From the NCBI GenBank assembly GCA_013349695.1, contig DUZD01000003.1, positions 1-32,711 of the forward strand: a stretch of 32,711 bases of DNA, read 5' to 3'. Origin of the DNA: Rhodospirillaceae bacterium. Lineage in GTDB: Bacteria; Pseudomonadota; Alphaproteobacteria; Rhodospirillales; 2-02-FULL-58-16. Below the pieces are notes generated by a model. The model saw only the letters and a list, made by a program, of their open reading frames with translations, did not search any database and was not told where the DNA came from. Positions 2,207 through 32,711 of the stretch are shown in pieces (within the stretch, counting starts at the first letter, position 1; each line of letters begins with the position of its first letter). The position numbers and the translations under genes were made by a program.

Positions 2207-3460
2207 ATGAAATCAAGCAAAGATGCCGCGGCGATGGGCAAAGCCGTGTTATCCGACTTATACGACGTCAACCTAGACTCGTTGCCCGAGGCGCTTTCGC
2301 GAGCTCATCTGGCGAGCAGTCAACCGGACCGCAATCTTGCCCTTGCTAACCACCTGTATGGCAGAATCGTGTCAAAAATTAAAATGCACCACGACGCCGG
2401 CAAGACAGTAGATATCTACGGGCCGGAGTGGTCTAGACAGAAAGCGAATGTTCAAAAGGCGGCCGAGGCGCATGCTCGAATCATCATCGACACGTACGGA
2501 CCGAATTACGCCTTCCCGAATAAGTACCCGGACCAAAACGCCAAAGTCATCGAGGCTGGCGCCGTGGACCTTTATTTTCTCGTCATCGACGGCGAGTTTG
2601 TTGGAACAACCTGCTTGTGCGATCAAGGAGAGATGAGAGCCGAGCTAGGGCGCTCGGCCGCCATTCGGCCGCGTGTCGGCAATACCATAATTCAAGACCT
2701 GAGCATTCTGGAATGGCTGCTGAATGACCGCGTATCCGACAAGTACCACACATTATTCACAACGCTTCGAACCGCGCCGGATCAGGATATCGGCTTGGAG
2801 CAACCGATGCGGGGCGGACAGGCGATAACAAGTCAATGGCAAAAGTTTCCCGAGCTGTTCGTCAACGGTACCGCACCGCTTTACTCGCTTTACTGTAAGC
2901 ACGGCAGCCTTGAGCAGTTCACCATCGCACAAATTACCCGAGCCGAATTTCAGACTGTACCCCTCTTCATCGCCGATGAGACCGATCGTCTGTTCGTTCG
3001 GCGGTGGCACGCGTTCTATGGGCTGGACGAGCCGCCCGCGGGAAACGTGGCCGAAGCGCCCCTCGTGGAAGCTCGTGTCCAAGTTCATGCGCCCCCTGAC
3101 CACTCCAGCATTTTCAAATTCGTATATGCCGCCATGACGTTTGGCGATGGGGCGATCGACGAACACGGCGAATCGATCGAAACTTACTTCACCAAGGAAG
3201 TTCCGTTTATCCAGGCAGCGGTGCCAATTGGCGACAACTCGATAGATGTCCAAAGGCAACTTCGAGATGCCGGCTTTCAGGCTTTCGGATATGAACCGGC
3301 AAATAATTTCCGGCCCGCCCATCTGTTCTTCGGAAAGGTAAGGCCCGGAAACAAGGTCGTTCCAACAAACTGGACGGTAGAGAGCGAGGCTCATCCATAT
3401 TGGACGGGCGAACTCGCAAACCACGCGGCACGAATTGAAAAAGCGTGGCAATCGATGTGA
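2207..3460 (+). CDS. Hypothetical protein, probable GNAT-fold acetyltransferase-like, lower GC than flanks
   Basis: 417-aa ORF with GAAGAGG upstream. Segments YFLVIDGEFVGTTCL...RAELGRSA and LRDAGFQAFGYEP resemble GNAT strands/motif B. Lines 2341 and 2701 are each 29/60 GC versus 39/60 for guaA line 1621. Confidence 0.7.
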   Translation: MKSSKDAAAMGKAVLSDLYDVNLDSLPEALSRAHLASSQPDRNLALANHLYGRIVSKIKMHHDAGKTVDIYGPEWSRQKANVQKAAEAHARIIIDTYGPNYAFPNKYPDQNAKVIEAGAVDLYFLVIDGEFVGTTCLCDQGEMRAELGRSAAIRPRVGNTIIQDLSILEWLLNDRVSDKYHTLFTTLRTAPDQDIGLEQPMRGGQAITSQWQKFPELFVNGTAPLYSLYCKHGSLEQFTIAQITRAEFQTVPLFIADETDRLFVRRWHAFYGLDEPPAGNVAEAPLVEARVQVHAPPDHSSIFKFVYAAMTFGDGAIDEHGESIETYFTKEVPFIQAAVPIGDNSIDVQRQLRDAGFQAFGYEPANNFRPAHLFFGKVRPGNKVVPTNWTVESEAHPYWTGELANHAARIEKAWQSM

Positions 3461-7918: not shown

Positions 7919-8000
7919 GTCATTCCCGCGAAAGCGGGAATTCAGGATTATCAAGAGGCTACTGGATTCCGGCTCGGCGCTCCGCGCCGTCCGGAATGAC
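7919..8000. repeat. REP doublet (GTCATTCC...GGAATGAC type)
   Basis: Left unit GTCATTCCCGCGAAAGCGGGAATTCAG and right unit CTGGATTCCGGCTCGGCGCTCCGCGCCGTCCGGAATGAC are inverted; each is itself a hairpin. Confidence 0.8.
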
Positions 8001-21306: not shown

Positions 21307-21790
21307 CGATGTCCGCTTCCTTCAGCCACCTCGCCCAGTTGCCGCGGCCGGTGAGCGTCGCCCGGCGGCTATTGGCGTCGCCGCCGTGCGCCAGCGACAG
21401 CCAACAATGGTCGCCGGGCAGGAGCCGGCCCAGCCGTTCCGGCCATTCGATCAGCGAAATGCCGCCCGCGAAGGCCTCCTCGATTCCCAGCTCGAAAGCC
21501 TCGTCCGGCCCGGCCAAGCGGAACAGGTCGAAGTGATGGACGGTGACCCAGTCCAGATCATAGGCCTGGACCAAAGTGAACGTCGGGCTGGGGATTTCCT
21601 CGGGGTTTGGCGCCAGCGCGTTGATGAAAGCGCGGGCGAAGACGGTCTTGCCGGCGCCGAGCTCGCCGGCCAGCGCGAAAACGTCGCCGGCCCGCGCCAG
21701 CCTGGCCAAGGCTCCGGCGAGGGCGGCCGTCGCCGCCTCCGAGGCCAGGCCGATGACGACGGAATGGTCCGTTGATTGGGCCTCGGGCAT
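21299..21790 (-). CDS. tsaE: tRNA threonylcarbamoyladenosine biosynthesis ATPase
   Basis: GELGAGKT, PSPTFTLVQ, HFDLFRL, LIEWPE. Confidence 0.95.
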   Translation of the reverse strand: MPEAQSTDHSVVIGLASEAATAALAGALARLARAGDVFALAGELGAGKTVFARAFINALAPNPEEIPSPTFTLVQAYDLDWVTVHHFDLFRLAGPDEAFELGIEEAFAGGISLIEWPERLGRLLPGDHCWLSLAHGGDANSRRATLTGRGNWARWLKEADIDV

Positions 21791-21903
21791 GTCCCGTCTT
21801 TCCATCGGCTCGCAAACAGGCCACAATGTGGGGGCGTACGACAGTCGTTCGCCAAGCTGCTGAACAGCACGCCAATAATAACCCCGCGGGTCGGCGAGTT
21901 TCC

Positions 21904-22932
21904 ATGGTCAAAACGCCCGAAAGCACCGATGTGGCGATTATCGGCGCCGGCCCCGCCGGTTTGTTCGCCGTTTTCGAATGCGGCATGATGAACATGCGCT
22001 GTCACGTCATCGACGTGCTGGAGGCGGTCGGCGGCCAATGCCAGGCCCTCTATCCGGAGAAGCCCATTTTCGACATTCCCGGCCATCCCGAGATTCTGGC
22101 CGGCGATCTGGTGATGAAGCTGGAACGGCAGGCGGCGCCGTTCGATCCCGTCTATCATCTGGGCCAGCAGGTGGTGAAGCTGGCGCAAGGGGAACGGGGG
22201 CGCTGGTTGCTGGAAACCTCGCGGGGCGTTTCGATCGACGCCCGGGTGGTGTTCGTCGCCGCCGGGGTCGGGGCGTTTGGCCCGAAGCGGCCGCCGCTTC
22301 AAGGCATCGAGCGGTTCGAGGGCAAAAGCATCCACTACCTGGTCAAAAACCGCGAGGATTTCCGGGGAAAAAAAGTAGTCATCGCCGGCGGCGGCGATTC
22401 GGCGGTGGACTGGGCGATATCGCTCTCTGGGCTGGCGGCGAAGGTTTCCGTGGTCCATCGGCGGGCCAAGTTCCGCGCCGCGCCGGCCAGCGCCGAGAAG
22501 CTGCAAAAGCTGGCCGACGGCGGCGCCGTCGATCTGGTGATCCCCTTTCAACTGGCCGCCATCGAGGGCGATGGCGACAGTTTGAAGGCGGTGCTCGCCC
22601 GCGACCTGGACGGAAACGAAAGACGCCTGGAGGCGGACGCGCTGTTGGCCTTTTTCGGCCTGTCGCAGAACCTTGGGCCGATCGTCGATTGGGAGCTCGA
22701 CCTGAACGGCGGCTTGATCGCCGTCGACCCGGCGACCGGCGCCACCAACAAGCCGGGCATTTTCGCGATCGGCGACATCGCCACCTATCCGGGCAAGTTG
22801 AAATTGATCCTGAGCGGCTTCGCCGAGGTGGCGCAAGCGGCGCGGGCCGCCCATCCCCTGGTCCATCCGGGCGAGGAGCTACATTTCGAGTACTCTACCA
22901 TCCAGGGCGTGCCGGGCAAGACACGAGGTTAA
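21904..22932 (+). CDS. Ferredoxin--NADP+ reductase, thioredoxin-reductase-like (YumC type)
   Basis: IIGAGPAGLF, GGQCQALYPEKPIFDIPG, GGGDSAVDW, GDIATYPGKLKLILSGF; lacks the TrxB CxxC. Confidence 0.9.
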   Translation: MVKTPESTDVAIIGAGPAGLFAVFECGMMNMRCHVIDVLEAVGGQCQALYPEKPIFDIPGHPEILAGDLVMKLERQAAPFDPVYHLGQQVVKLAQGERGRWLLETSRGVSIDARVVFVAAGVGAFGPKRPPLQGIERFEGKSIHYLVKNREDFRGKKVVIAGGGDSAVDWAISLSGLAAKVSVVHRRAKFRAAPASAEKLQKLADGGAVDLVIPFQLAAIEGDGDSLKAVLARDLDGNERRLEADALLAFFGLSQNLGPIVDWELDLNGGLIAVDPATGATNKPGIFAIGDIATYPGKLKLILSGFAEVAQAARAAHPLVHPGEELHFEYSTIQGVPGKTRG

Positions 22933-23057: not shown

Positions 23058-24218
23058 GGGCACGTAACAAAACAATTGAATCGTATTGCCTCGGTCTGTC
23101 GGTGAGGGGTTCCGCATCCTTCGGGTATGCACTATATTTGGTATATGCAGGACACGGAAGGCATCAGGTATCGTTACGAGGCGCTTTATCCGCACCTTGA
23201 CGAGAAGGCACGGCGGCTCTTTGCCGCCGCGGAGGCGCGGACGGTGGGATGGGGCGAGATCAAGCTGGTATGCGAGATCACAGGGATTGCCCGCTCGACG
23301 ATCGGGCGCGGTCTTGATGAACTTGACGGCAAGACGGAGTCGCTCGGGGAAGGGCGGGTTCGGCGTCGCGGCGGTGGCCGCAAGCTGGAGACGGAGAAGC
23401 AACCGAGTTTGCTGGGAGCCCTTGAGAGCCTTGTCGCGCCAGCCACGCGCGGCGATCCGGAAAGGCCGTTGCCTTGGGTTTCAAAAAGCTATCGGCACCT
23501 TGCGAACGGCTTGAGGGAGCTTGGTTTTTCGGTCAGCCACCAACTGGTGGGGCGGCTCCTTGATCGGCTAGGCTACACTCTTCAGGCGAACGTGAAGAGG
23601 CGAGAAGGAACCCATCATCCCGACCGGGACGGCCAATTCGAGCACATCAACGGCCGGGTAACGGATTTCCTGGCCGCCGGGCAGCCGGTGATCTCGGTGG
23701 ACACGAAGAAGAAGGAACTGGTGGGCGACTTCAAGAACGGCGGGCGCGAGTGGCGACCGCAAGGCAAGCCCGAAGAGGTCAACGTGCATGACTTCGCCGA
23801 CAAGAAGCTTGGCAAGGTGGCGCCCTACGGCGGCTCCAACGGAGCCCGGGTCCGGCTATGGAAGGTCGAACTGCAAAAGCTCGCCTCCGAATTGGGGCTT
23901 GAGATCATGGTTTGCTATCTGCCGCCCGGCACCAGCAAATGGAACCGCATCGAACACCGCCTGTTTTCGTTCATCAGCCAAAACTGGCGTGGCAAGCCGT
24001 TGCGGACGCTCGCCACCATTGTCAACCTGATCGGCGCGACCACGACAAACACGGGACTCAAGGTCTATTGCGATGTGGACCATAACGCCTATCCCAAAGG
24101 TGTCGCCGTCAGCGATGATGAAATGACTGCCCTCAACATCCGACGCGCCGAATTCCATGGCCAATGGAACTACTCCTTCCTGCCCGCATAAACGAAGCAG
24201 TTTTTTTGTTACGTGCCC
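23058..24218. mobile_element. ISAzo13-family insertion sequence (internally deleted)
   Basis: Terminal inverted repeats GGGCACGTAACAAAA (15/15 perfect, 23/27 extended), flanked by TTA and TAA; contains an ISAzo13-type transposase. Confidence 0.92.
23145..24191 (+). pseudogene. ISAzo13-family DDE transposase with in-frame internal deletion
   Basis: Motifs LDEKARRLFAAAEA, RGDPERPL, HPDRDGQF, ISVDTKKKELVG, PPGTSKWNRIEHRLF. PYG is joined directly to GSNG. Confidence 0.8.
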
Positions 24219-24363
24219 TAAGGCGATGCGACGCATCATGCCCCCTTACGTATTCCAGCGAGATTAGAGTCGGATTCTCCCACCAAAATCCGGTCGGATC
24301 AACTGCTCCTTGCCCCGAGGCACGAAAGGGTTCATCGGCCTGGACGTTCGGTTCCGGTTTGGC

Positions 24364-25137
24364 CTATTTGTCGGTGAATTTGGGCTGGCGCTTTTCGGCA
24401 AAGGCGGCCATGCCTTCCTTCTGGTCATCGGTGGCGAAGGTGGCGTGAAACAGGCGCCTTTCGTAACGGATACCTTCGGCAAGAGGGGTTTCCTGGGACC
24501 GCAATACCGCTTCTTTTGCCATCATGACGGTTGGCCTGGACATCTCGGCGATGGCATCGGCCGTCTTCACCGCCTCGTCCACCAGATTGCCGGCGACGAC
24601 GCGGCTGACCAAACCGGAGCTCTCGGCTTCCACGGCCTCCATGATACGGCCGGTGAGAATCATCTCCATCGCCTTCGACTTGCCGACCAAACGGGTCAGA
24701 CGCTGGGTTCCCCCCGCCCCGGGGATCGTGCCGATGGTGATTTCCGGCTGGCTGAACTTGGCGTTGTCGGCGGCGAGAATGAAATCGCACATCATGGCGA
24801 TTTCACAACCGCCGCCCAAGGCGTAGCCGGCGACGGCGGCGATCACCGGCTTGCGGCACGTGGCGATGCGTTCCCAGTCCTTGCTAATGAAATCCTCGCT
24901 GTAGGCCTCGATAAAGGACTTGTCCCTGATCTCCTTGATGTCGGCGCCGGCGGCGAAAACCTTATCCGAACCGGTAATGACGATGGCGCCGATTTCGTCG
25001 TCGTCCTCGAATTCGTCGAGGGCCAGCTTAAGTTCCCCGATCAAGGCGACGTTAAGCGCGTTCATCGCTTTCGGGCGGTTGAGCGTGATCAGGCCGACGC
25101 GGCCTCTTTTCTCGACAATGATGTTCTCGTGTGCCAA
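24364..25137 (-). CDS. Enoyl-CoA hydratase
   Basis: [49 protein letters not shown]; TTG start after AAGGAGG. Confidence 0.95.
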
Positions 25138-25266
25138 CTGACCCCTCCTTCAAGACCAAGACGCTAGCGCAAATCCCGAGCGGATGGACTCATCCGCGAC
25201 GACGCATTTGCGTTTAAAACAAATAGATAGAGCATTTCAGGTGAACGCATGTGAACCGGAAATGCT

Positions 25267-27365: not shown

Positions 27366-27424
27366 GCGGGCTGGCAGCCCGTTGACGAAGTCGTCCTCCA
27401 CTGATTCAATGATCGAGTAACTAA

Positions 27425-27591
27425 GGGCTCGTCACAAAATAACCGTGTCACTTCACTTCCGTCGTCATGCCCGGCCTTGAGCCGGGTATCCACGCGGTCG
27501 ATGCCGAGCGCGGGACCCGTGGATGGCCGAATCAAGTCCGGCCATGACGACGGAAGGGAGGATGGTGATTCATTTATTCTGTTACGGTCAC
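27425..27591. mobile_element. Putative MITE with ISAzo13-like ends enclosing a REP doublet
   Basis: Ends GGGCTCGTCACAAAATAA and (rc) GTGACCGTAACAGAATAA match the IS left end GGGCACGTAACAAAACAA at 15/18 and 13/18; flanked by TAA and TTA. Confidence 0.6.
27456..27556. repeat. REP doublet (GTCATGCCCGG...CCGGCCATGAC type)
   Basis: Perfect outer inverted repeat CTTCCGTCGTCATG/CATGACGACGGAAG; inner units GTCATGCCCGGCCTTGAGCCGGGTATCCAC and GTGGATGGCCGAATCAAGTCCGGCCATGAC. Confidence 0.85.
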
Positions 27592-27597
27592 TTAAGG

Positions 27598-27633
27598 TCG
27601 GCGGCCAACTGATCAACGGTCTGGGTCGCCGTC
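27598..27633. repeat. Imperfect direct repeat, copy A (overlaps the stop codon of the TIR-CHAT gene)
   Basis: 31/36 identical to 32140..32175. Confidence 0.8.
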
Positions 27634-30600
27634 GCGGATGGACTCGGCCAGGGCGTCGAGGATTTCCCGGAGCTTCGCCGGCAGGGCGCCGGGAACCGGG
27701 GGCGGGGGCTTGCCGTCGGCGACGGCGCGGAGGAAGGCGCCGACGGCGTCCAGGGGCGCCGGGTAGTCCGCCAGTCGGGCGAGGGCCTCGGCCGCGTCGG
27801 GCGGCAGGGCGCCGCCGCCACGGGCCTGGAAGGCCGCCTGGGCGAGGGCCAGGATCGCTTTCACCAGGTCGTCGGGCACGGCCCCGTCCTCGCCGCCACC
27901 CCGGCGTAGCCGCCCGATCTCCTCGACCTTGGTGTCATGCTTGGCTTGCCATTCGGCGGCGGCGGCGGTGTCGCCCCGGGCGCGGGCGATCTTGGCGAGG
28001 TTGCCGTAGTCCATGTATACGTCGGGGAGGCGGAGCGATTCGCAGATGGCGAGCGATTCGCGGGCGTTCCGCTCGGCCTCGTCCAGTTCGCCCAGCATGC
28101 GGTGGAGAACGCCGAGTTGAAAATGGGATTTCGCCGCGCCGGGGCGGTCGTTCATTTCCAGCACTATCGCCAAGCTTTCCCTTATGGAGTCGACCGCCCG
28201 GCGAAGCCAGGCCTCGCGCTCCCCAGGGTCCTTTGTCTGCTCGGCGCGATTCTGGTGAAGTATGCCGACATTGTGGGCGTTGGCGGCCAGTTGCCGCCGG
28301 TCATTGAGGCGCTTCGCCAGTTCCCGTGCGCGCCCATACCAGGCCTCCGCCACATCAAGCTGTCCGCGTTGCGCCTCCGCGTTGGCCAGCAAGTCGGCGG
28401 TTTGCATCTCTCCACCCGCATCGTCGGCCCGACGGAAGAACTCCAGCGCCTGCTGGTAGAGCGCGACGGCGCGGTCGAAGCGACCCTGCGCGCCGTGCAA
28501 GATTCCCTGGTGCTGAAGGAACGTCCCCTGTAGTTCGAGGTCGCCCGCGTCCCGGGCGGCGGCAAGCGCCTCGGTGTAGCGGGCATCGGCCTCCGCGTAA
28601 CGCTGCAGCCTTGTCAGGATGGTGGCTGCTCGTCCCAGACCGGCAGCCACCTCCCGGTCGTGGCCGAGGTCGCGTCTGATGGCGAGGCCGCGCTCGGAAG
28701 CCTCCAGGGCTTCATCGAAGCGCCCCAATTCCATCAGCGCGTTGGCGAGGTCGCCCAGGGCGGCCGCGAGATTGCCGCGCTGGGCCTCGCCGAGGCCTTC
28801 GAATTGGGCGATGGCCCTCCCGAGCGGCTCGAGCGCCCGGTCCGGGCGGCCATGGGAGTCAAGCAACCGGCCCAGATAAAGTTGGCTCAGCGCCAACTGT
28901 AACGCCGGATCCGCGCTGTCCGCCAGGCCTTCGTCCGCGAGCCTGCGAATCAGATCCTCCAGGGTGGCGATGGCCTCGTCCCCATGGCCCTGGGTGAAGC
29001 GGCTCCAGGCATGGTCCCGAATCGCCGCGCAGGCGGCCCCGTCCAGCGTCTCGTCCACCGGCATCCGCTCCCGCACCCAGGCCACCACTTCGTCCCGTTC
29101 GCGAGGCCGCCCGGCCATTTGCAGGAATGTCCGCAACGTGCCGGCCAACGCCTGACCCTCGGACCGGCCGCCACGCCGGAAGGCCCGGCGGATGGCGGCG
29201 CGGTAGTTGGCTTCCTCCAGGCTCATGCTCAGCATCGCGGCGGCGGGCTGGCCGCCCCGGAGCGCCTTGTCGGTCGCCCGCATATCGGCGAGGTAGACTC
29301 CGATGAAGCGCTTCTCGGTGGCCTCCGGGTCCGCAACGTCGGCCGCCCGGGCGGCGTGGGGCAGGGTCGGATGGAAGCGCAGAAAGGGGGTCGAAAAAAC
29401 CTCGACGGTCTCCACCCGCACCAAGGCCGTCGCCACCAGTTCCGCCCGCGTCGCTTCCCACGCCTCCGGGTCCAACTCCGCGAAAATGATGAACAACCCT
29501 TCGAACACACCGCCCCGGAACCAAGCGAGATAGGGCAGCGCCGCCTGGGCGGCCTCGCTGAGCCGGCGTTTGGAGAAGGCGAGCGAGGCAAGCAGCGACC
29601 TGTTGCGGCCCTCCGCCGCCGCCGCGTCGGCGAATTCCTCCAGCGGTTCGCCGAACTCTTCGCGGATTCGGTCCGGCGTCCGCGCCTTCAAATGGGGGGC
29701 GACCAGGGCGATGGAGAGGGGATGGTCGGCGAGGGCGTCGAGTAGCCGTTCCACCCGTTCCCGCTCGTAGCCCGGGCGGCCGGTGTCGATGGACTTGGCG
29801 TCGAGCACGGCGGCCAGCAGGTGCAGGCTGTCGGGGCGGGCGAGGCCCTCCAGGGCCACCTCCTTGATGGCGGGGAGCTCTGTTTCCTCCGGACGGCAGG
29901 TCACCAGCAAGCGGCCGAGGGGGGCGCCGTCGGTGAGGTCCCGGTAGAGCCGCGCCAGCCCTTGGCGCGCCTCGGCCGTGTAGACGCCCAGGCCGTCCGT
30001 GCCGCCGTCCGCCGCCTCTTCCCCTTCCTGGAACGCCGGCAGGGTGGATTCGAAGTTGTCCCAGACCAGCAAGACCCGGCGGGTCCTGAACAGCGCCACC
30101 GCCTGGCGCCATTGCTCCTCTTGCGGCAGCGCCGCGAAGCCTTCGTCCCCGAGGGCGGCGCCGATCCGCTGGGCCACCTGGTCCGCCCCCGCCCATTGTT
30201 CGAAGCTGACGAACACCGCCGCCTCGAAGCGGCCGGCGCGCAGCCACCACGCCGCCGCTTCCCGCGCCAGGGCCGTCTTGCCCATGCCCCCCATGGCGTG
30301 GAGCAGCACGGCGGGATGGTCGCGGAATTGCCGCTCCAGGGCCAGCAGTTCCCGAGCCCGTCCGTGGAAGCGGTACACCGGCGGCGGCGGAAATCCGTGA
30401 AGCCTTGCCGCCACGCCGGTCCGCGCCCACTCCCTTTCCGGTTCCGCCGCCGCGCCGGCGGTCAGCGCCGGGTCGTCTCCCACTTGGTAAAGCTGGGGAA
30501 TGAACCAGTCGTCCAGGTTCACCGTCTCGGCCTCGGGTCCCAGGTGCAGCCAGCGCGCCCGGTTTGCGTGCAAGGCCCGGCGGGCCTCGGCGAGGGCCTC

Positions 30601-32001
30601 GCCGACACTCATGCCGGCGGCCAACTCGCCATAGAAGCGCTCGACCAGCAGGCGCGCCGCCTCCACGTGCACCGAATGGCTGAAGGCGACGACGCTCCCG
30701 ACGCCGCTGTTGAGCAGGGCCGGCGCCACCGAGCCGAACACCGGCCGGTCGGCGAGGTCGGCGCTACGGCAAGCCTCCAGCAGCACCAGCGGCACGCCCT
30801 GTCTCACCATCAGGTCGCCGAGGCGGGGTCCCGCGATCAGGTCGGTAGTGGCCGCGCCGTCCTCGAAGGCCAGGGCGCCGACGCCGGTCCTCGGCAGATA
30901 GGTGCCGTGGCCGTCGAAATGGACGATATGGAAGGGCTTGCCGTTCTTGCGCGCCTCGGAAACCTGCTTCTCGAGCTGTCCGAAGGTGGGCGGCTCGCAG
31001 AATTCGAGATCAAGCTGGCCGGGACCCAGGGCCTCGAGGGCGTCGAGCATGGGCGCGATGCTGTCGCGCGGGTCGAGGAATCCGGTGTCGGTGGGCCGGC
31101 TGACGATCGACAGAACCCGGAGCGGCAGGCCAAGCTCGGGTGTTCGGGTCTCGCCGGACTCGCGAAGCTGGCGGCGGAGGCTTACCCCCTGGAAGGTCAA
31201 TGGGCGGTCCTCGGCGTCGCGCAGCATCTCCCAGGGCTGGCCGAGGACCTCGGCGTCGTCGCTGGCCAGCGTCAGCAGCACCGGCCGGCCGTGGGCGACG
31301 GCCTTGGCCAGGTCGCCATGAACCTCCCCACCGGTTCGGTTGTCGAACAGGGCCTCGAATAGTTCCCCGCCCCATCGTGAAAGACAGGACTCCAAACCCT
31401 TGGCGCGCACCCGGTCGCCGGCGCCGGGAAACTGCGGGTAGGTTTCCAGGTACCAACGAAGCTCCTCCAGGCCCTTGCCGTCGAGGGGCAGGGCAAGCTC
31501 GAATGGCGGTGCGTGCCAGCGGCCCATCGGCGCGCCGTCCTTGCTCTCGACCACGAGGCGGGCGTGATAGGGCGGGCGACGGATGCGCGCCCCAGCGGTG
31601 GGCGCGCCCACATGCTTCCGTATGGCCGTCAGCAGCTTCGTCAGCCCGGCGTCGTAGTCGTCCCTGAAATCGGCGTGGCTTTTGTCGCGCAGCAATCGCG
31701 GAATGTCGCAGTCCTCGATCAGGACCGGGACGATGTGAACCTTCCGGCTGGTGGCCTCGTCCGCGATATGGGCCTGCCACTCCTTCTCCACCCAGCCCGA
31801 CCGGACACTTTTCCGGGACAGCACAAGAACGAGAAGGTCCGAGTCATCGAGCCCCAATTGGATGTTTTGCGCGATGGAATCGCCCGGCAGAATTTCGTCG
31901 TCGTCGAGCCAAACGCCGATGCCTTCCGCCTTCAGATCATCGGCGAGGCGCGTGACGAGCAACTTGTCGCTGCTGGAGTGAGAGAGAAAGACTCTGGGCA
32001 T
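27613..32001 (-). CDS. TIR - CHAT (caspase-like protease) - STAND NTPase - TPR multidomain protein, 1462 aa
   Basis: TIR: VFLSHSSSDK, VWLD, WVEKE (E74). CHAT: VHFDGHG (H365), LLEACRS (C411). STAND: FHGRARE, AMGGMGKT (K575), LLVWDNFE (D648), LLVTCR, DHPL. TPR repeats such as LGDLANALMELGRFDEALEASERGLAI. GGGAAGGG upstream of the ATG. Confidence 0.92.
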   Translation of the reverse strand: MPRVFLSHSSSDKLLVTRLADDLKAEGIGVWLDDDEILPGDSIAQNIQLGLDDSDLLVLVLSRKSVRSGWVEKEWQAHIADEATSRKVHIVPVLIEDCDIPRLLRDKSHADFRDDYDAGLTKLLTAIRKHVGAPTAGARIRRPPYHARLVVESKDGAPMGRWHAPPFELALPLDGKGLEELRWYLETYPQFPGAGDRVRAKGLESCLSRWGGELFEALFDNRTGGEVHGDLAKAVAHGRPVLLTLASDDAEVLGQPWEMLRDAEDRPLTFQGVSLRRQLRESGETRTPELGLPLRVLSIVSRPTDTGFLDPRDSIAPMLDALEALGPGQLDLEFCEPPTFGQLEKQVSEARKNGKPFHIVHFDGHGTYLPRTGVGALAFEDGAATTDLIAGPRLGDLMVRQGVPLVLLEACRSADLADRPVFGSVAPALLNSGVGSVVAFSHSVHVEAARLLVERFYGELAAGMSVGEALAEARRALHANRARWLHLGPEAETVNLDDWFIPQLYQVGDDPALTAGAAAEPEREWARTGVAARLHGFPPPPVYRFHGRARELLALERQFRDHPAVLLHAMGGMGKTALAREAAAWWLRAGRFEAAVFVSFEQWAGADQVAQRIGAALGDEGFAALPQEEQWRQAVALFRTRRVLLVWDNFESTLPAFQEGEEAADGGTDGLGVYTAEARQGLARLYRDLTDGAPLGRLLVTCRPEETELPAIKEVALEGLARPDSLHLLAAVLDAKSIDTGRPGYERERVERLLDALADHPLSIALVAPHLKARTPDRIREEFGEPLEEFADAAAAEGRNRSLLASLAFSKRRLSEAAQAALPYLAWFRGGVFEGLFIIFAELDPEAWEATRAELVATALVRVETVEVFSTPFLRFHPTLPHAARAADVADPEATEKRFIGVYLADMRATDKALRGGQPAAAMLSMSLEEANYRAAIRRAFRRGGRSEGQALAGTLRTFLQMAGRPRERDEVVAWVRERMPVDETLDGAACAAIRDHAWSRFTQGHGDEAIATLEDLIRRLADEGLADSADPALQLALSQLYLGRLLDSHGRPDRALEPLGRAIAQFEGLGEAQRGNLAAALGDLANALMELGRFDEALEASERGLAIRRDLGHDREVAAGLGRAATILTRLQRYAEADARYTEALAAARDAGDLELQGTFLQHQGILHGAQGRFDRAVALYQQALEFFRRADDAGGEMQTADLLANAEAQRGQLDVAEAWYGRARELAKRLNDRRQLAANAHNVGILHQNRAEQTKDPGEREAWLRRAVDSIRESLAIVLEMNDRPGAAKSHFQLGVLHRMLGELDEAERNARESLAICESLRLPDVYMDYGNLAKIARARGDTAAAAEWQAKHDTKVEEIGRLRRGGGEDGAVPDDLVKAILALAQAAFQARGGGALPPDAAEALARLADYPAPLDAVGAFLRAVADGKPPPPVPGALPAKLREILDALAESIRDGDPDR

Positions 32002-32139
32002 CCCTTCCCCCGAATATCGGAATGCGTTTTCGTTGAGTATAGCGAGCGAAATTCTCGATGGGAAATGTCATCGTCCGCCTGGCGAACCGTTATGGGCGAG
32101 AGGGCGATGCCCGGGGGCGCCAAGCGCAAGTCCTTTGCT

Positions 32140-32175
32140 TCGGCGGCCAGTCGATCGATGGTCTGGGTCGCCGTC
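32140..32175. repeat. Imperfect direct repeat, copy B (about 140 bp upstream of the TIR-CHAT start)
   Basis: 31/36 identical to 27598..27633. Confidence 0.8.
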
Positions 32176-32243
32176 CGACGGGTTCGTTGCGAAGTCGAAA
32201 CATCCGCTCGCCGCAACTGCATTCGAAGTTGGATCGCCAAATA

Positions 32244-32711
32244 GCCCTGAACATCAAAGCGGACGTCGGAGTGAAGGAGCGGATTTTCCATATCTAGTGG
32301 CCCGCGTCAGCCAAATTGCACCCCTACGATCGCTTTTCCCGTTTCCTCGGCAGAAGGGGGCGCGCAGGCGATGCAGGGACATCGTCAAGCGTTCCCGACG
32401 CCCCGAGGGGACGGGAAAAGCGACCCTTCGGGCGGTCTTGCGAGGCTTCCAGACGTCGTCGCGTGCCGCTTGTGGTGCACAGACACCACGGCGCAACGCG
32501 CTCCTAGCCGGAAACCTCGCAAGACCGTCGTAGGGGTGCAATTTGGCTGACGCGGGCCACTAGAACGTCAATGCCTACGACAGCCGGCTGAAGGGATGGG
32601 TGCAAAGGTTCAACGGAGTGGCGACCAGATACCTGGACAGCTATCTGGGTTGGCGACGGTTCTTTGAGCGTCATAAGGAAGAGGCGACCAATCCAAAATC
32701 ATGGTTGATCG
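32244..32711 (+). pseudogene. IS1595-family transposase C-terminal remnant, split by the CTAG element
   Basis: Removing the insert gives [50 protein letters not shown], matching the IS1595 HIQNVN...RLK.W..RF.GVAT.YL..YLGW motif. Confidence 0.85.
32294..32563. mobile_element. Non-autonomous structured element (MITE-like) with CTAG at both ends
   Basis: Perfect 37-bp inverted repeat 32293-32329/32528-32564 including CTAG; internal arms 32330-32342/32411-32423 (13/13) and 32433-32450/32510-32527 (17/18); no transposase. Confidence 0.9.

Follow-up and report, generated by a model that had tools for sequence, protein, structure and literature searches.

A family of bacterial NLR-like proteins with a conserved CHAT protease core and an optional TIR domain

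Introduction

Avs (AVAST) and bNACHT proteins combine an N-terminal effector, a central STAND NTPase, and a C-terminal TPR-like sensor, are encoded by single genes, and are horizontally spread among bacteria. According to the accessible text of a 2026 survey of STAND proteins (PMC13581612), binding of a phage protein causes characterized Avs and bNACHT proteins to oligomerize, which activates the effector. Here we analyze a gene of the same general plan, found on a 32,711-nucleotide stretch of DNA (called "the window" in the following) that represents the entire contig DUZD01000003.1 of a Rhodospirillaceae bacterium (GenBank assembly GCA_013349695.1; 2.28 Mb in 255 contigs, 89.8% complete). 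The gene, stop codon included, lies at 27613..32001 on the minus strand and encodes a protein of 1462 aa (P0001) with a TIR domain, a caspase-like CHAT protease, a STAND NTPase, and a TPR array, identified from its open reading frame (ORF), its translation, and full-length homologs. In contrast to Avs and bNACHT proteins, it carries two stacked enzymes, of which the protease is constant and the TIR domain optional within the family, and an NTPase whose nearest, albeit weak, affinity is to the NB-ARC/AP-ATPase type.

A TIR domain and a caspase-fold protease also occur together in type IV Thoeris, where they serve abortive infection (ThsE effector). As described in the available part of the type IV Thoeris preprint, the TIR and the caspase are separate genes and the two proteins communicate through the diffusible signal N7-cyclic ADP-ribose (N7-cADPR), whereas here one chain carries both enzymes on a STAND-TPR scaffold. 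Moreover, the protease in question is of the CHAT family and is also carried by relatives that lack a TIR domain. Membership in type IV Thoeris was rejected on the grounds that the protein is a single polypeptide, that its lone gene is situated between a convergent ubiE and a repeat resembling a miniature inverted-repeat transposable element (MITE), and that the NCBIfam Thoeris models score far below their cutoffs (34.5 versus 220 bits for ThcB4).

The protease fold is shared with Csx29/TPR-CHAT (Craspase), SAVED-CHAT, and separase, which are among the top Foldseek matches, and the His-Cys dyad is conserved in the family studied here. In Csx29, however, the TPRs precede CHAT and the Cas7-11 RNA complex acts as the switch, and SAVED-CHAT responds to cyclic oligoadenylate; in the present protein the order is CHAT, STAND, TPR, with the STAND ATPase between the protease and the TPRs. 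This order, and the lack of any cas gene among the window ORFs, to which the search was confined, led us to discard an assignment to Craspase. In bacterial gasdermin operons, CHAT or C14 proteases, some of them fused to NACHT, TPR, LRR, or WD40 domains, adjoin the pore former that they cleave, as far as the accessible text of a 2021 preprint describes them. Nine TIR-less relatives of the window protein likewise adjoin a candidate pore former; this neighbor has, however, a predicted hemolysin/leukocidin fold, and the window gene has a TIR domain instead. The gene was not classed as a gasdermin protease, because no gasdermin neighbor was found in the window, where the upstream sequence is limited to 710 bp by the contig end. 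Finally, the trypsin-MBL pairs of AVAST and Hachiman and the "canu" loci contain a sensor-fused, oligomer-activated protease that switches on a second toxic enzyme (PMC12799240, accessible text). The second enzyme in those pairs is a separate nuclease of the metallo-beta-lactamase (MBL) fold and the protease is mostly trypsin-like, whereas here the second enzyme would be a TIR domain on the same chain.

Three modules, namely TIR domains, caspase-fold proteases, and nucleotide-binding oligomerization (NOD/STAND) domains, are the signatures of innate immunity and of programmed cell death in plants and animals, and one bacterial chain combines all of them. A TIR domain on a NOD ring, as in the resistosomes of plant TIR-type NLRs (TNLs), and a caspase-fold protease gathered by an Apaf-1-like NOD, as in the apoptosome, have counterparts in the same protein, a comparison backed by weak profile matches to plant NLRs and Apaf-1. 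Unlike those assemblies, it is bacterial, has a TPR sensor instead of leucine-rich or WD40 repeats, and carries its protease as a fusion rather than recruiting it through a CARD; homology is limited to the NTPase core. Two eLife papers (2020 and 2021) treat caspases, TIR domains, AP-ATPases, and TPRs as a shared vocabulary of effectors and sensors and include STAND-GT4 proteins with an N-terminal TIR domain and a caspase, and a PNAS paper (2024) contains one target of a diversity-generating retroelement (DGR) with both CHAT and TIR. The accessible text of these three papers describes no TIR-CHAT-NB-ARC-TPR family, no clade with permuted order, and no hemolysin-fold neighbor. Among the 589 STAND clades of the 2026 survey, caspase-like N-termini are reported on Apaf-1-like proteins with beta-propeller sensors, and the available main text holds no case of TIR plus CHAT. 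A 2025 TIR survey, judging by its available sections, excluded the TIR domains of Avs proteins and standalone genes. In the portions of the literature that we could examine, the term "TIR-caspase" was applied to type IV Thoeris, and nothing closer to a fusion was found. A preceding reading of the DNA that used the letters and ORFs only (the sequence-only reading) knew of no characterization of this exact architecture, which agrees with our literature searches, as these gave no paper on a TIR-CHAT-STAND-TPR fusion.

Domain architecture and conservation of active sites

The ORF comprises 1462 codons with an ATG start and zero internal stops. Its start codon is backed by the homolog P0003 (68% identical), whose first residues are identical, and homology extends from end to end: in P0005, for example, residues 7-1461 align to residues 4-1455 of the window protein at 55% identity. 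Because relatives align over the whole length, the gene is real and intact, and a chance ORF in GC-rich DNA, which had been considered, is ruled out by the same alignments.

All modules are encoded on the minus strand. The TIR domain (residues 4-124; 31630..31992) was identified by Pfam TIR_2 (E 7.8e-31) and by an AlphaFold2 (AF2) model searched with Foldseek. It is followed by a Pro/Arg-rich linker (residues 125-144; 31570..31629), delimited by the point at which TIR-less relatives start and by low values of the predicted local distance difference test (pLDDT; block mean 63), with poor order at ~132-144. The CHAT protease module (residues 145-530; 30412..31569; Pfam CHAT 4e-21, AF2, and Foldseek) consists of a beta-hairpin plus helical subdomain in the AF2 model (residues 145-236) and the caspase-fold core (residues 240-481), to which the Pfam CHAT match (E 4e-21) belongs. 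The STAND NTPase of the NB-ARC/AP-ATPase-like type occupies residues ~540-770 (29692..30384; Pfam NB-ARC and profile comparison with the PDB). The NTPase and the TPRs are separated by a helical region (residues 771-1039; 28885..29691) with many invariant columns in an alignment of 50 sequences. No Pfam model covers it, and it is presumed to be the ARC/winged-helix part plus a spacer. The TPR array (residues 1040-1354; 27940..28884; Pfam TPR_12 3.8e-26, TPR_10 2.4e-15), presumably the sensor, matches the TPRs of LGN/Pins and of kinesin light chain in the PDB. The protein ends in a conserved tail (residues 1355-1462; 27616..27939), which has no Pfam match and to which homologs align up to query residue ~1455. 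With TIR and CHAT effectors, an NB-ARC-like NTPase, and TPR repeats, the protein has the tripartite layout of STAND systems.

Both the four-module architecture and the active-site residues named in the sequence-only reading were borne out by the Pfam domains, the residues lying exactly where they had been placed: Glu74 (codon 31780-31782, in WVEKE), His365 (30907-30909, in DGHG), Cys411 (30769-30771, in EAC), Lys575 of Walker A (30277-30279, in AMGGMGKT), and Asp648 of Walker B (30058-30060, in VWD), all five codons on the minus strand. Trp70 and Glu74 fit the W-x-x-x-E position of TIR NADases, in which this glutamate is the catalytic residue. The first glycine of Walker A is replaced by alanine in the window protein; both residues occur at this position in the family.

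Pooled over all fetched homologs, a set that is partly redundant, the TIR glutamate is kept in 101 of 103 TIR domains, the CHAT histidine and cysteine each in 308 of 312 CHAT domains, and the Walker A lysine and Walker B aspartate each in 280 of 280 STAND domains. A 50-row alignment, composed of all 15 TIR-bearing matches (P0091 and the window's own cluster, P0002, excepted) and 35 of the ~104 TIR-less ones, gave the same picture: His365 is present in 49 and Cys411 in 48 of the 50 rows, Lys575, Thr576, Asp648, and Arg703 in all 50 each, and Glu74 in 15/15 TIR-bearing rows. Conservation of this kind indicates purifying selection on each of the three enzymatic modules.

By sequence, the TIR domain is closest to the bacterial TIRs 7uxr, 3h16, and 7uwg/8g83 and to Cat1. 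Its best profile matches in PADLOC and NCBIfam are retron-TIR (3.5e-19), PDC-S66 (6.6e-18), SAVED-TIR (3e-13), and the SPARTA TIR-APAZ protein (1e-11), all of which are NAD+-depleting effector types. The PADLOC ThsB model matches more weakly (E 2e-8) and in the TIR region only, and the Pfam ThsB_TIR model reaches merely E 0.044. By these profiles, the TIR domain is nearest to TIRs that are fused with other modules. An AF2 model of residues 1-560 (40-row alignment) had a pLDDT of 85.1 and a predicted TM score (pTM) of 0.78; its TIR part superimposes on TIR structures, the SPARTA TIR-APAZ protein included, with target-normalized TM scores of 0.66-0.86. For the CHAT part, the top PDB matches in Foldseek were SAVED-CHAT 8tl0, Csx29/TPR-CHAT 7zoq, 7y84, and 8eey, separase 5fc2, and DdvA 8rot, with gingipain also among the matches.

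The NTPase is harder to place. Pfam NB-ARC covers residues 564-648 only (E 4.8e-6, 26.5 bits versus a cutoff of 23.5), and the scores of Pfam NACHT and nSTAND6 fall under their cutoffs. When the STAND profile of the family was compared with the PDB, the matches were PH0952 (3.4e-8, in an alignment that takes in a GxP-like "HPL" motif), AfsR (1.8e-5), the plant coiled-coil NLRs (CNLs) Sr35/ZAR1 (~3e-4), Apaf-1 (0.014), and NLRP5 (0.017). Because these profile matches are weak, the assignment to an NB-ARC/AP-ATPase-like clade is tentative. The NLR-like tripartite logic proposed for the protein is nevertheless supported, the nearest solved STAND relatives being PH0952, AfsR, the plant CNLs, and Apaf-1.

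None of the 23 PADLOC-DB 2.0 families that matched at E<=1 is an Avs family; the Avs families of 2026 are outside this library. The matches are confined to the TIR domain (residues 1-129) or the TPR part, with the exception of BovA at 0.096, and even the model named "TIR-NLR" covers residues 3-101 only. The PADLOC comparison that had been suggested as a check of the architecture thus recognized the TIR and TPR parts and supplied no model for the whole protein.

Family, distribution, and domain orders

Among 8000 scored candidates, a search with residues 1-700 found 456 proteins at E<=0.001. Of the 120 best homologs, 16 have a TIR Pfam domain (the window's own cluster counted) and ~104 do not. 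The TIR-less homologs stem from many phyla, are ~1320-1350 aa long, start at query residue ~144, and are 50-60% identical to the window protein over ~1300 aa. Since they begin at ~144 and align throughout, the constant unit of the family is CHAT-STAND-TPR plus the C-terminal tail. Judged by these alignments, CHAT is the constant module and TIR an optional add-on. In a FastTree phylogeny built from the core part of the 50-row alignment, the presence of TIR has changed (been gained or lost) at least 5 times. The proposal that two effectors are stacked on one sensor thus stands insofar as both are present, and fails insofar as it implied equal partners.

A HMMER search of the whole library with residues 1-560 returned 48,882 representatives at E<=0.001, of which 15,739 reach E<=1e-10 and 804 reach E<=1e-30. 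The family is thus large, even at the strictest of these thresholds, and lies outside current models of defense systems. The query contains the TIR domain and is biased toward TIR-bearing matches, which also applies to the classification, with custom domain hidden Markov models (HMMs), of the best 150 cluster representatives (50% identity): 39 have the full TIR-CHAT-STAND-TPR architecture, 5 have the order CHAT-TIR, 93 are TIR-less, and 1 is a TIR domain alone. Eight TIR-CHAT-STAND and 4 TIR-CHAT representatives are shorter proteins and probably fragments. The TIR-CHAT-STAND-TPR architecture is therefore not rare.

At the genome level, 263 stretches that encode a relative were found in 185,579 species genomes (one genome per species) from many phyla. 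The best 80 of them yielded 76 loci, all from metagenome-assembled genomes (MAGs), which were typed with custom HMMs: 12 encode TIR-CHAT-STAND-TPR in the order of the window protein, 21 encode CHAT-TIR-STAND-TPR, 34 have no TIR domain, and the genes at the remaining 9 are missing their 5' end. Their hosts are Chloroflexota, Acidobacteriota, Polyangia, Planctomycetota, Chromatiaceae, Entotheonella, and others. The permuted CHAT-TIR order was confirmed by Pfam in 6/6 proteins tested. It was seen in loci L033, L036-L043, L048, L050, L051, L054, L055, L059, L063, L066, L073-L075, and L078, from Acidobacteriota, Planctomycetota, Accumulibacter, and others, with the gene starting near locus position 8000 in most.

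In a STAND-TPR tree of 49 rows, from which split or truncated genes were left out, the family falls into two sister clades with a support of 100. Clade 1 comprises CHAT-STAND proteins with or without an N-terminal TIR domain, the window protein among them, and clade 2 is mostly CHAT-TIR-STAND. Between four groups the TIR domains are 26-35% identical, versus 46-61% for CHAT and STAND; within the groups, identity reaches 47-63% (TIR) and 60-73% (core). As the TIR domain diverges between groups far more than the CHAT/STAND core, the data fit a repeated capture of different TIR domains by one scaffold at two insertion points. Alternatively, the TIR domains may simply evolve faster. The pairing of TIR with a protease-NOD-TPR scaffold would, in the former case, have arisen repeatedly and in both domain orders, and the suggestion that there is a reason for the pairing of TIR with CHAT gains from the recurrence of the combination in two orders with TIRs that were apparently acquired separately.

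The same comparisons bear on the idea that the protein is a single-chain counterpart of type IV Thoeris, in which a signal derived from ADP-ribose and made by the TIR domain would turn on the CHAT protease, either in its own molecule or in neighboring ones. Such a scheme has a model in the type IV Thoeris TIR product N7-cADPR, which, as stated in the accessible text on that system, activates a caspase-like protease, and it could explain why TIR and CHAT are repeatedly found together on this scaffold; furthermore, the TIR domains of the CHAT-TIR clade match the ThsB_TIR Pfam model at ~1e-6 to 1e-7. However, in the TIR-less relatives the CHAT module is the same (46-61% identical) and no domain is missing or added, and activation of CHAT therefore cannot need a TIR product across the family. 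TIRs as divergent between lineages as those described above fit poorly to a coevolved pair of signal and receptor, and the window TIR itself is distant from both the ThsB_TIR model and the NCBIfam Thoeris models, by the scores already given. We thus regard signaling of this kind as quite improbable, and signaling from TIR to protease in cis, one of the mechanisms raised at the outset, is unlikely to be obligatory.

Two further observations concern the family as a whole. Tandem arrays of CHAT-STAND-TPR paralogs were seen in a Holophagales MAG (L027, four copies) and in an unclassified MAG (L008, with three copies, of which two are fragmentary), which looks like receptor diversification. Members that are 57-59% identical to the window protein were found on contigs binned as an archaeon (L024) and as a Nealsonbacteria MAG of the candidate phyla radiation (CPR; L006); these placements could be due to gene transfer or to a binning error. 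A plasmid search in protein mode returned 11 records, all below 33% identity and none covering 80% of the query. Thus, no close relative was found on a sequenced plasmid.

A predicted hemolysin-fold neighbor of TIR-less relatives

When all ORFs around the 76 loci were clustered, the sole specific recurrent neighbor was a protein of ~230 aa, encoded on the same strand and directly adjoining the relative, which it precedes in 6 loci and follows in 3. The other clusters were generic (ABC ATPase, kinase-TPR, response regulators, and dehydrogenases). The partner occurs in 9 of 34 TIR-less loci versus 0 of 33 TIR-bearing ones, and in 7 of 24 versus 0 of 24 if only loci with both flanks >=1200 bp are considered. 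The partner genes are located at L014:5664-6362, L005:12563-13258, L024:7017-7760, L028:7188-8000, L034:13220-14017, L045:6891-7628, L049:6520-7266, L053:11663-12460, and L009:7074-7903, the last being frameshifted. The five partner-bearing loci that are present in the tree share a 16-row subclade with the window protein.

The partner matches zero families in Pfam, PADLOC, or NCBIfam. Its AF2 model (8-row alignment) is mostly beta, with a pLDDT of 69.8, a pTM of 0.71, and a low-confidence segment at residues 112-156. The top Foldseek matches of this model are almost all pore formers of the alpha-hemolysin, leukocidin, and Vibrio cytolysin type (E 2e-5 to 2e-4, TM 0.24-0.42). In VIA-align, the first 44 rows all belong to that superfamily (Z 9-10.5; root mean square deviation 3.4-3.8 Å over 163-173 of 232 residues). 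Among named Atlas clusters, Leukocidin is the nearest (score 0.87), which is to be taken as a lead only. Segment 112-156 has an alternating, Gly-rich sequence like that of a membrane stem hairpin and sits where those toxins carry their stem. The partner is thus predicted to have the alpha-hemolysin/leukocidin fold, from a model of middling confidence, and is a candidate executioner or a candidate substrate of the protease.

These observations suggest another role for the protease. Once activated by the STAND module, CHAT might act as a processing enzyme whose cleavage frees or activates an interchangeable killing module, namely the fused TIR domain in cis (in the window protein and the CHAT-TIR clade) or, for some TIR-less relatives, the hemolysin-fold neighbor in trans. 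The restriction of the partner to TIR-less loci, its occurrence close to the window protein in the tree, and the exclusive resemblance of its top-ranking structural matches to pore formers, including the stem-like segment, all speak for such a role. Precedents exist in CHAT proteases, some of them NACHT- or TPR-fused, that cleave bacterial gasdermins (2021 preprint, available text), and in the sensor-fused proteases that activate pro-nucleases in AVAST and Hachiman as well as in "caspase-nuclease" loci (PMC12799240, available text). The family anatomy is less accommodating. Among 15 TIR-first homologs, the linker between TIR and CHAT varies from ~12 to 80 residues and has no conserved motif. 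A cut in proteins of the order CHAT-TIR-STAND would leave the TIR domain on the STAND ring, and "release" can therefore not be the general rule. Furthermore, 25 of the 34 TIR-less loci have neither a TIR domain nor the partner. A partner profile, which as a positive control recovered its own genome, found nothing at E<=0.001 in three of four genomes with TIR-less, partner-less loci; the fourth gave a single weak match (1.3e-5). The 5/5 TIR-bearing genomes yielded no match either. In the genome of the window, one protein query at E<=1 did not find the partner, which is no proof of absence because this genome is 89.8% complete. The fold prediction itself, as noted, is of middling confidence. On balance, we consider processing possible but doubtful.

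If it does apply, CHAT could be regarded as a built-in "caspase" that is switched in the manner of NLRs and processes interchangeable executioners, either a fused TIR NADase or an adjacent cytoplasmic pore former of the hemolysin fold; we hold this wider scheme to be just as doubtful. It would amount to a bacterial analog, encoded by one or two genes, of the inflammasome, its caspase, and its executioner, and the partner would be the first hemolysin-fold protein used for suicide from within the cell. The hemolysin-fold neighbor of TIR-less members points to a further, undescribed kind of executioner.

Proposed function and its alternatives

The reading that we favor, to which we give about an even chance, is that the gene was acquired horizontally and by itself encodes an NLR-like (STAND) system that unites sensor and executioner, with CHAT and TIR switched on in parallel to bring about abortive infection. 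The C-terminal TPR array, perhaps together with the tail, would keep the protein autoinhibited until it binds its trigger, most likely a conserved protein of a phage or another invader. The NB-ARC-like ATPase would then drive oligomerization, and the oligomer would cluster the N-terminal modules so that both enzymes become active in parallel. Of these, the CHAT caspase-like protease would be the ancestral, constant effector, and the N-terminal TIR domain an accessory NAD+-consuming effector that the scaffold has repeatedly captured. The outcome would be growth arrest or death of the infected cell. These steps, and the immune function as such, are inferred from the anatomy of the family combined with the established biology of STAND, TIR, and caspase-fold proteins. 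Taken as a whole, the architecture is a recurrent, conserved variant of bacterial NLR-like systems, with the protease as its core and TIR as an add-on.

Several points weigh against this picture. The literature searched holds no experiment on any member of the family. No model of a known system spans the protein, PADLOC matching the TIR and TPR parts only, and clustering of the neighbors at the 76 loci gave no signal of a defense island around relatives. Parallel activation by proximity is presumed for the window protein; among solved CHAT relatives, it is a change in conformation or a binding partner, not dimerization, that turns on separase and Csx29. The nine TIR-less relatives with a hemolysin-fold neighbor hint that CHAT may be a specific processing protease rather than a general executioner. 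The TPR part is very conserved in the 50-row alignment for a sensor engaged in an arms race. Lastly, the RNA data presented below are weak because the contigs give no strand and carry-over of DNA is possible.

Some of these points would be easier to understand if the protein were not antiviral and served instead as a device for regulated cell death, kin recognition, or stress signaling, or as a regulator that acts on the physiology of its host by proteolysis. Family members are concentrated in Chloroflexota, Polyangia, Chromatiaceae, Planctomycetota, Entotheonella, and Acidobacteriota. These groups have filamentous, social, or aggregate-forming lifestyles. This distribution fits the eLife papers of 2020 and 2021 on conflict systems of multicellular bacteria, to the extent of their accessible text. 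A role outside defense would also be in line with the lack of a defense-gene neighborhood around the 76 loci, the strong conservation of the TPRs and the tail, and the occurrence of the CHAT fold in DdvA and in HetF-like regulators. On the other hand, the host genome is small (2.28 Mb assembled, 89.8% complete), the gene appears as a recent island insertion that was not found in 20 relatives, which is typical of accessory conflict genes, and TIR and protease effectors on a STAND scaffold are a hallmark of immune and conflict systems in the accessible literature. A role of this sort is therefore, in our estimation, unlikely.

If the protein is active, it would be a compact system for studying how a single sensor coordinates the destruction of NAD+ with proteolysis, and for testing whether one enzyme gates the other and why bacteria stack effectors. 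A possible benefit of stacking is redundancy against phage counter-defenses that restore NAD+ or sequester the products of TIR domains.

Genomic context and mobile elements

Most of the window encodes housekeeping functions (guaA, an ABC exporter, mnmA, trpBA, accD, folC, addAB, mutM, and ubiE). Downstream, the gene faces the convergent ubiE, and upstream only 710 bp remain to the contig end; for this visible sequence, the earlier remark that no substrate gene is adjacent holds. The description of the surrounding DNA as rich in mobile elements was likewise confirmed and could be sharpened, as two MITE-like repeats bracket the gene and an ISAzo13-family DDE transposase is encoded in the window (23127-24191, plus strand; Pfam 2.1e-102). 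The first repeat, palindromic and ~174 bp long, lies between the stop codons of ubiE and of the gene (27421..27594, unstranded) and has 41 matches in its own genome, several of them at contig ends. The second is 272 bp long, carries perfect terminal inverted repeats of 37 nt (32293..32564, unstranded; inverted repeat I1), and is situated 292 bp upstream of the gene start. It has 72 genome matches, many at contig ends, including positions 6-90 of the window. The two repeats differ from each other.

Synteny with two genomes of the same genus takes in orf24310, mutM, and ubiE but extends no further than the end of ubiE. A search with residues 145-830 gave no match at E<=1e-10 in 20 related genomes. 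GC content is 0.67-0.72 in the 1-kb bins of the gene versus 0.54-0.70 elsewhere in the window. The gene lies in an island bracketed by the two repeats, and comparison with these relatives suggests that it was acquired horizontally and inserted recently. Scans for tRNA genes and Rfam families in the window returned nothing, and thus no tRNA-linked integration site was seen. A sigma-70-like promoter, which is a consensus match only (TTCCCA-17-TATACT; 32036..32064, minus strand), precedes the ATG by 35 nt; one such site was found versus 0.2 expected from shuffled sequences.

A gene in such surroundings might have no current function in its host and be carried along, silent or in decay, by a mobile island. 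The MITE-like repeats and remnants of repeated elements on both sides, and the apparent loss of the adjacent ubiB at the locus, could be read in this way. Decay is, however, hard to reconcile with an intact 4.4-kb frame that retains all catalytic residues and aligns with relatives from end to end. The sequencing runs discussed next, in which the stretch is nearly unchanged in 16 DNA runs, the gene has a depth close to that of flanking core genes, and RNA-library contigs lie over parts of the gene, also oppose it, and we consider a passenger role highly improbable.

Presence in sequencing runs

The 16 DNA runs each contain at least half of the sampled words of the stretch; nine of the runs that hold it are possibly the source of this DNA and do not count as independent support. 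In total, 20 runs from 12 studies contain the stretch, and they represent metagenomes of seawater, marine, and hydrothermal-vent origin; the RNA runs whose shares are small (X18 0.11, X19 0.08, and X20 0.06) did not enter into naming the habitat. In the DNA run X1, one contig of 4727 nt spans positions 27592-32318 with one difference. Depth in this run is ~28 for the gene, 33-44 for mutM and ubiE, and 245-535 for the two flanking repeats; at 27421-27594, where contigs of this run break, it reaches 420-535, i.e., ~15-fold that of the gene. Runs X1, X17, and X18 also contain a form free of the 272-bp element, in which position 32294 is joined to 32562.

Contigs identical to the gene were also assembled from RNA libraries, namely X17 (six pieces), X18 (four, from the same sample), and X19 (two, from another study), which makes three runs from two studies. 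Their depth of 2-9 is like that of ubiE and mutM, and parts of the gene are uncovered, from which no conclusion on transcription of those parts follows. These contigs are weak evidence for transcription of the gene.

Further observations on the window

The contig end (32243-32294 and 32562-32711) is another repeated element, with a depth of 245-371 in X1, into which the 272-bp MITE-like element is inserted. A 49-aa frame within it (32564-32710) has no Pfam match, and the initial impression that it might be the tail of an insertion sequence (IS)-family transposase was dropped as unsupported. The DNA match to same-genus genomes starts only at 24313, and the ISAzo13-family transposase may thus be an insertion.

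In a same-genus genome, ubiB directly follows ubiE; here it is missing from position 27366 of the window onward. In the genome of the window (89.8% complete), only an ABC1 paralog of 32% identity was found for ubiB. Synteny resumes on another contig (G000:C51:1-730, L095) ~58 nt before the ubiB stop, preceded by a copy of the MITE-like repeat and what reads as a fragment of a sugar-nucleotide dehydrogenase gene. We surmise that the two contigs adjoin. Three long ORFs of the window have no Pfam match (2207-3460, plus strand; 21451-22866, minus strand; 24310-25167, plus strand). The last of these is conserved, with 92% and 78% identity in two same-genus genomes and 54% in a genome of the same family.

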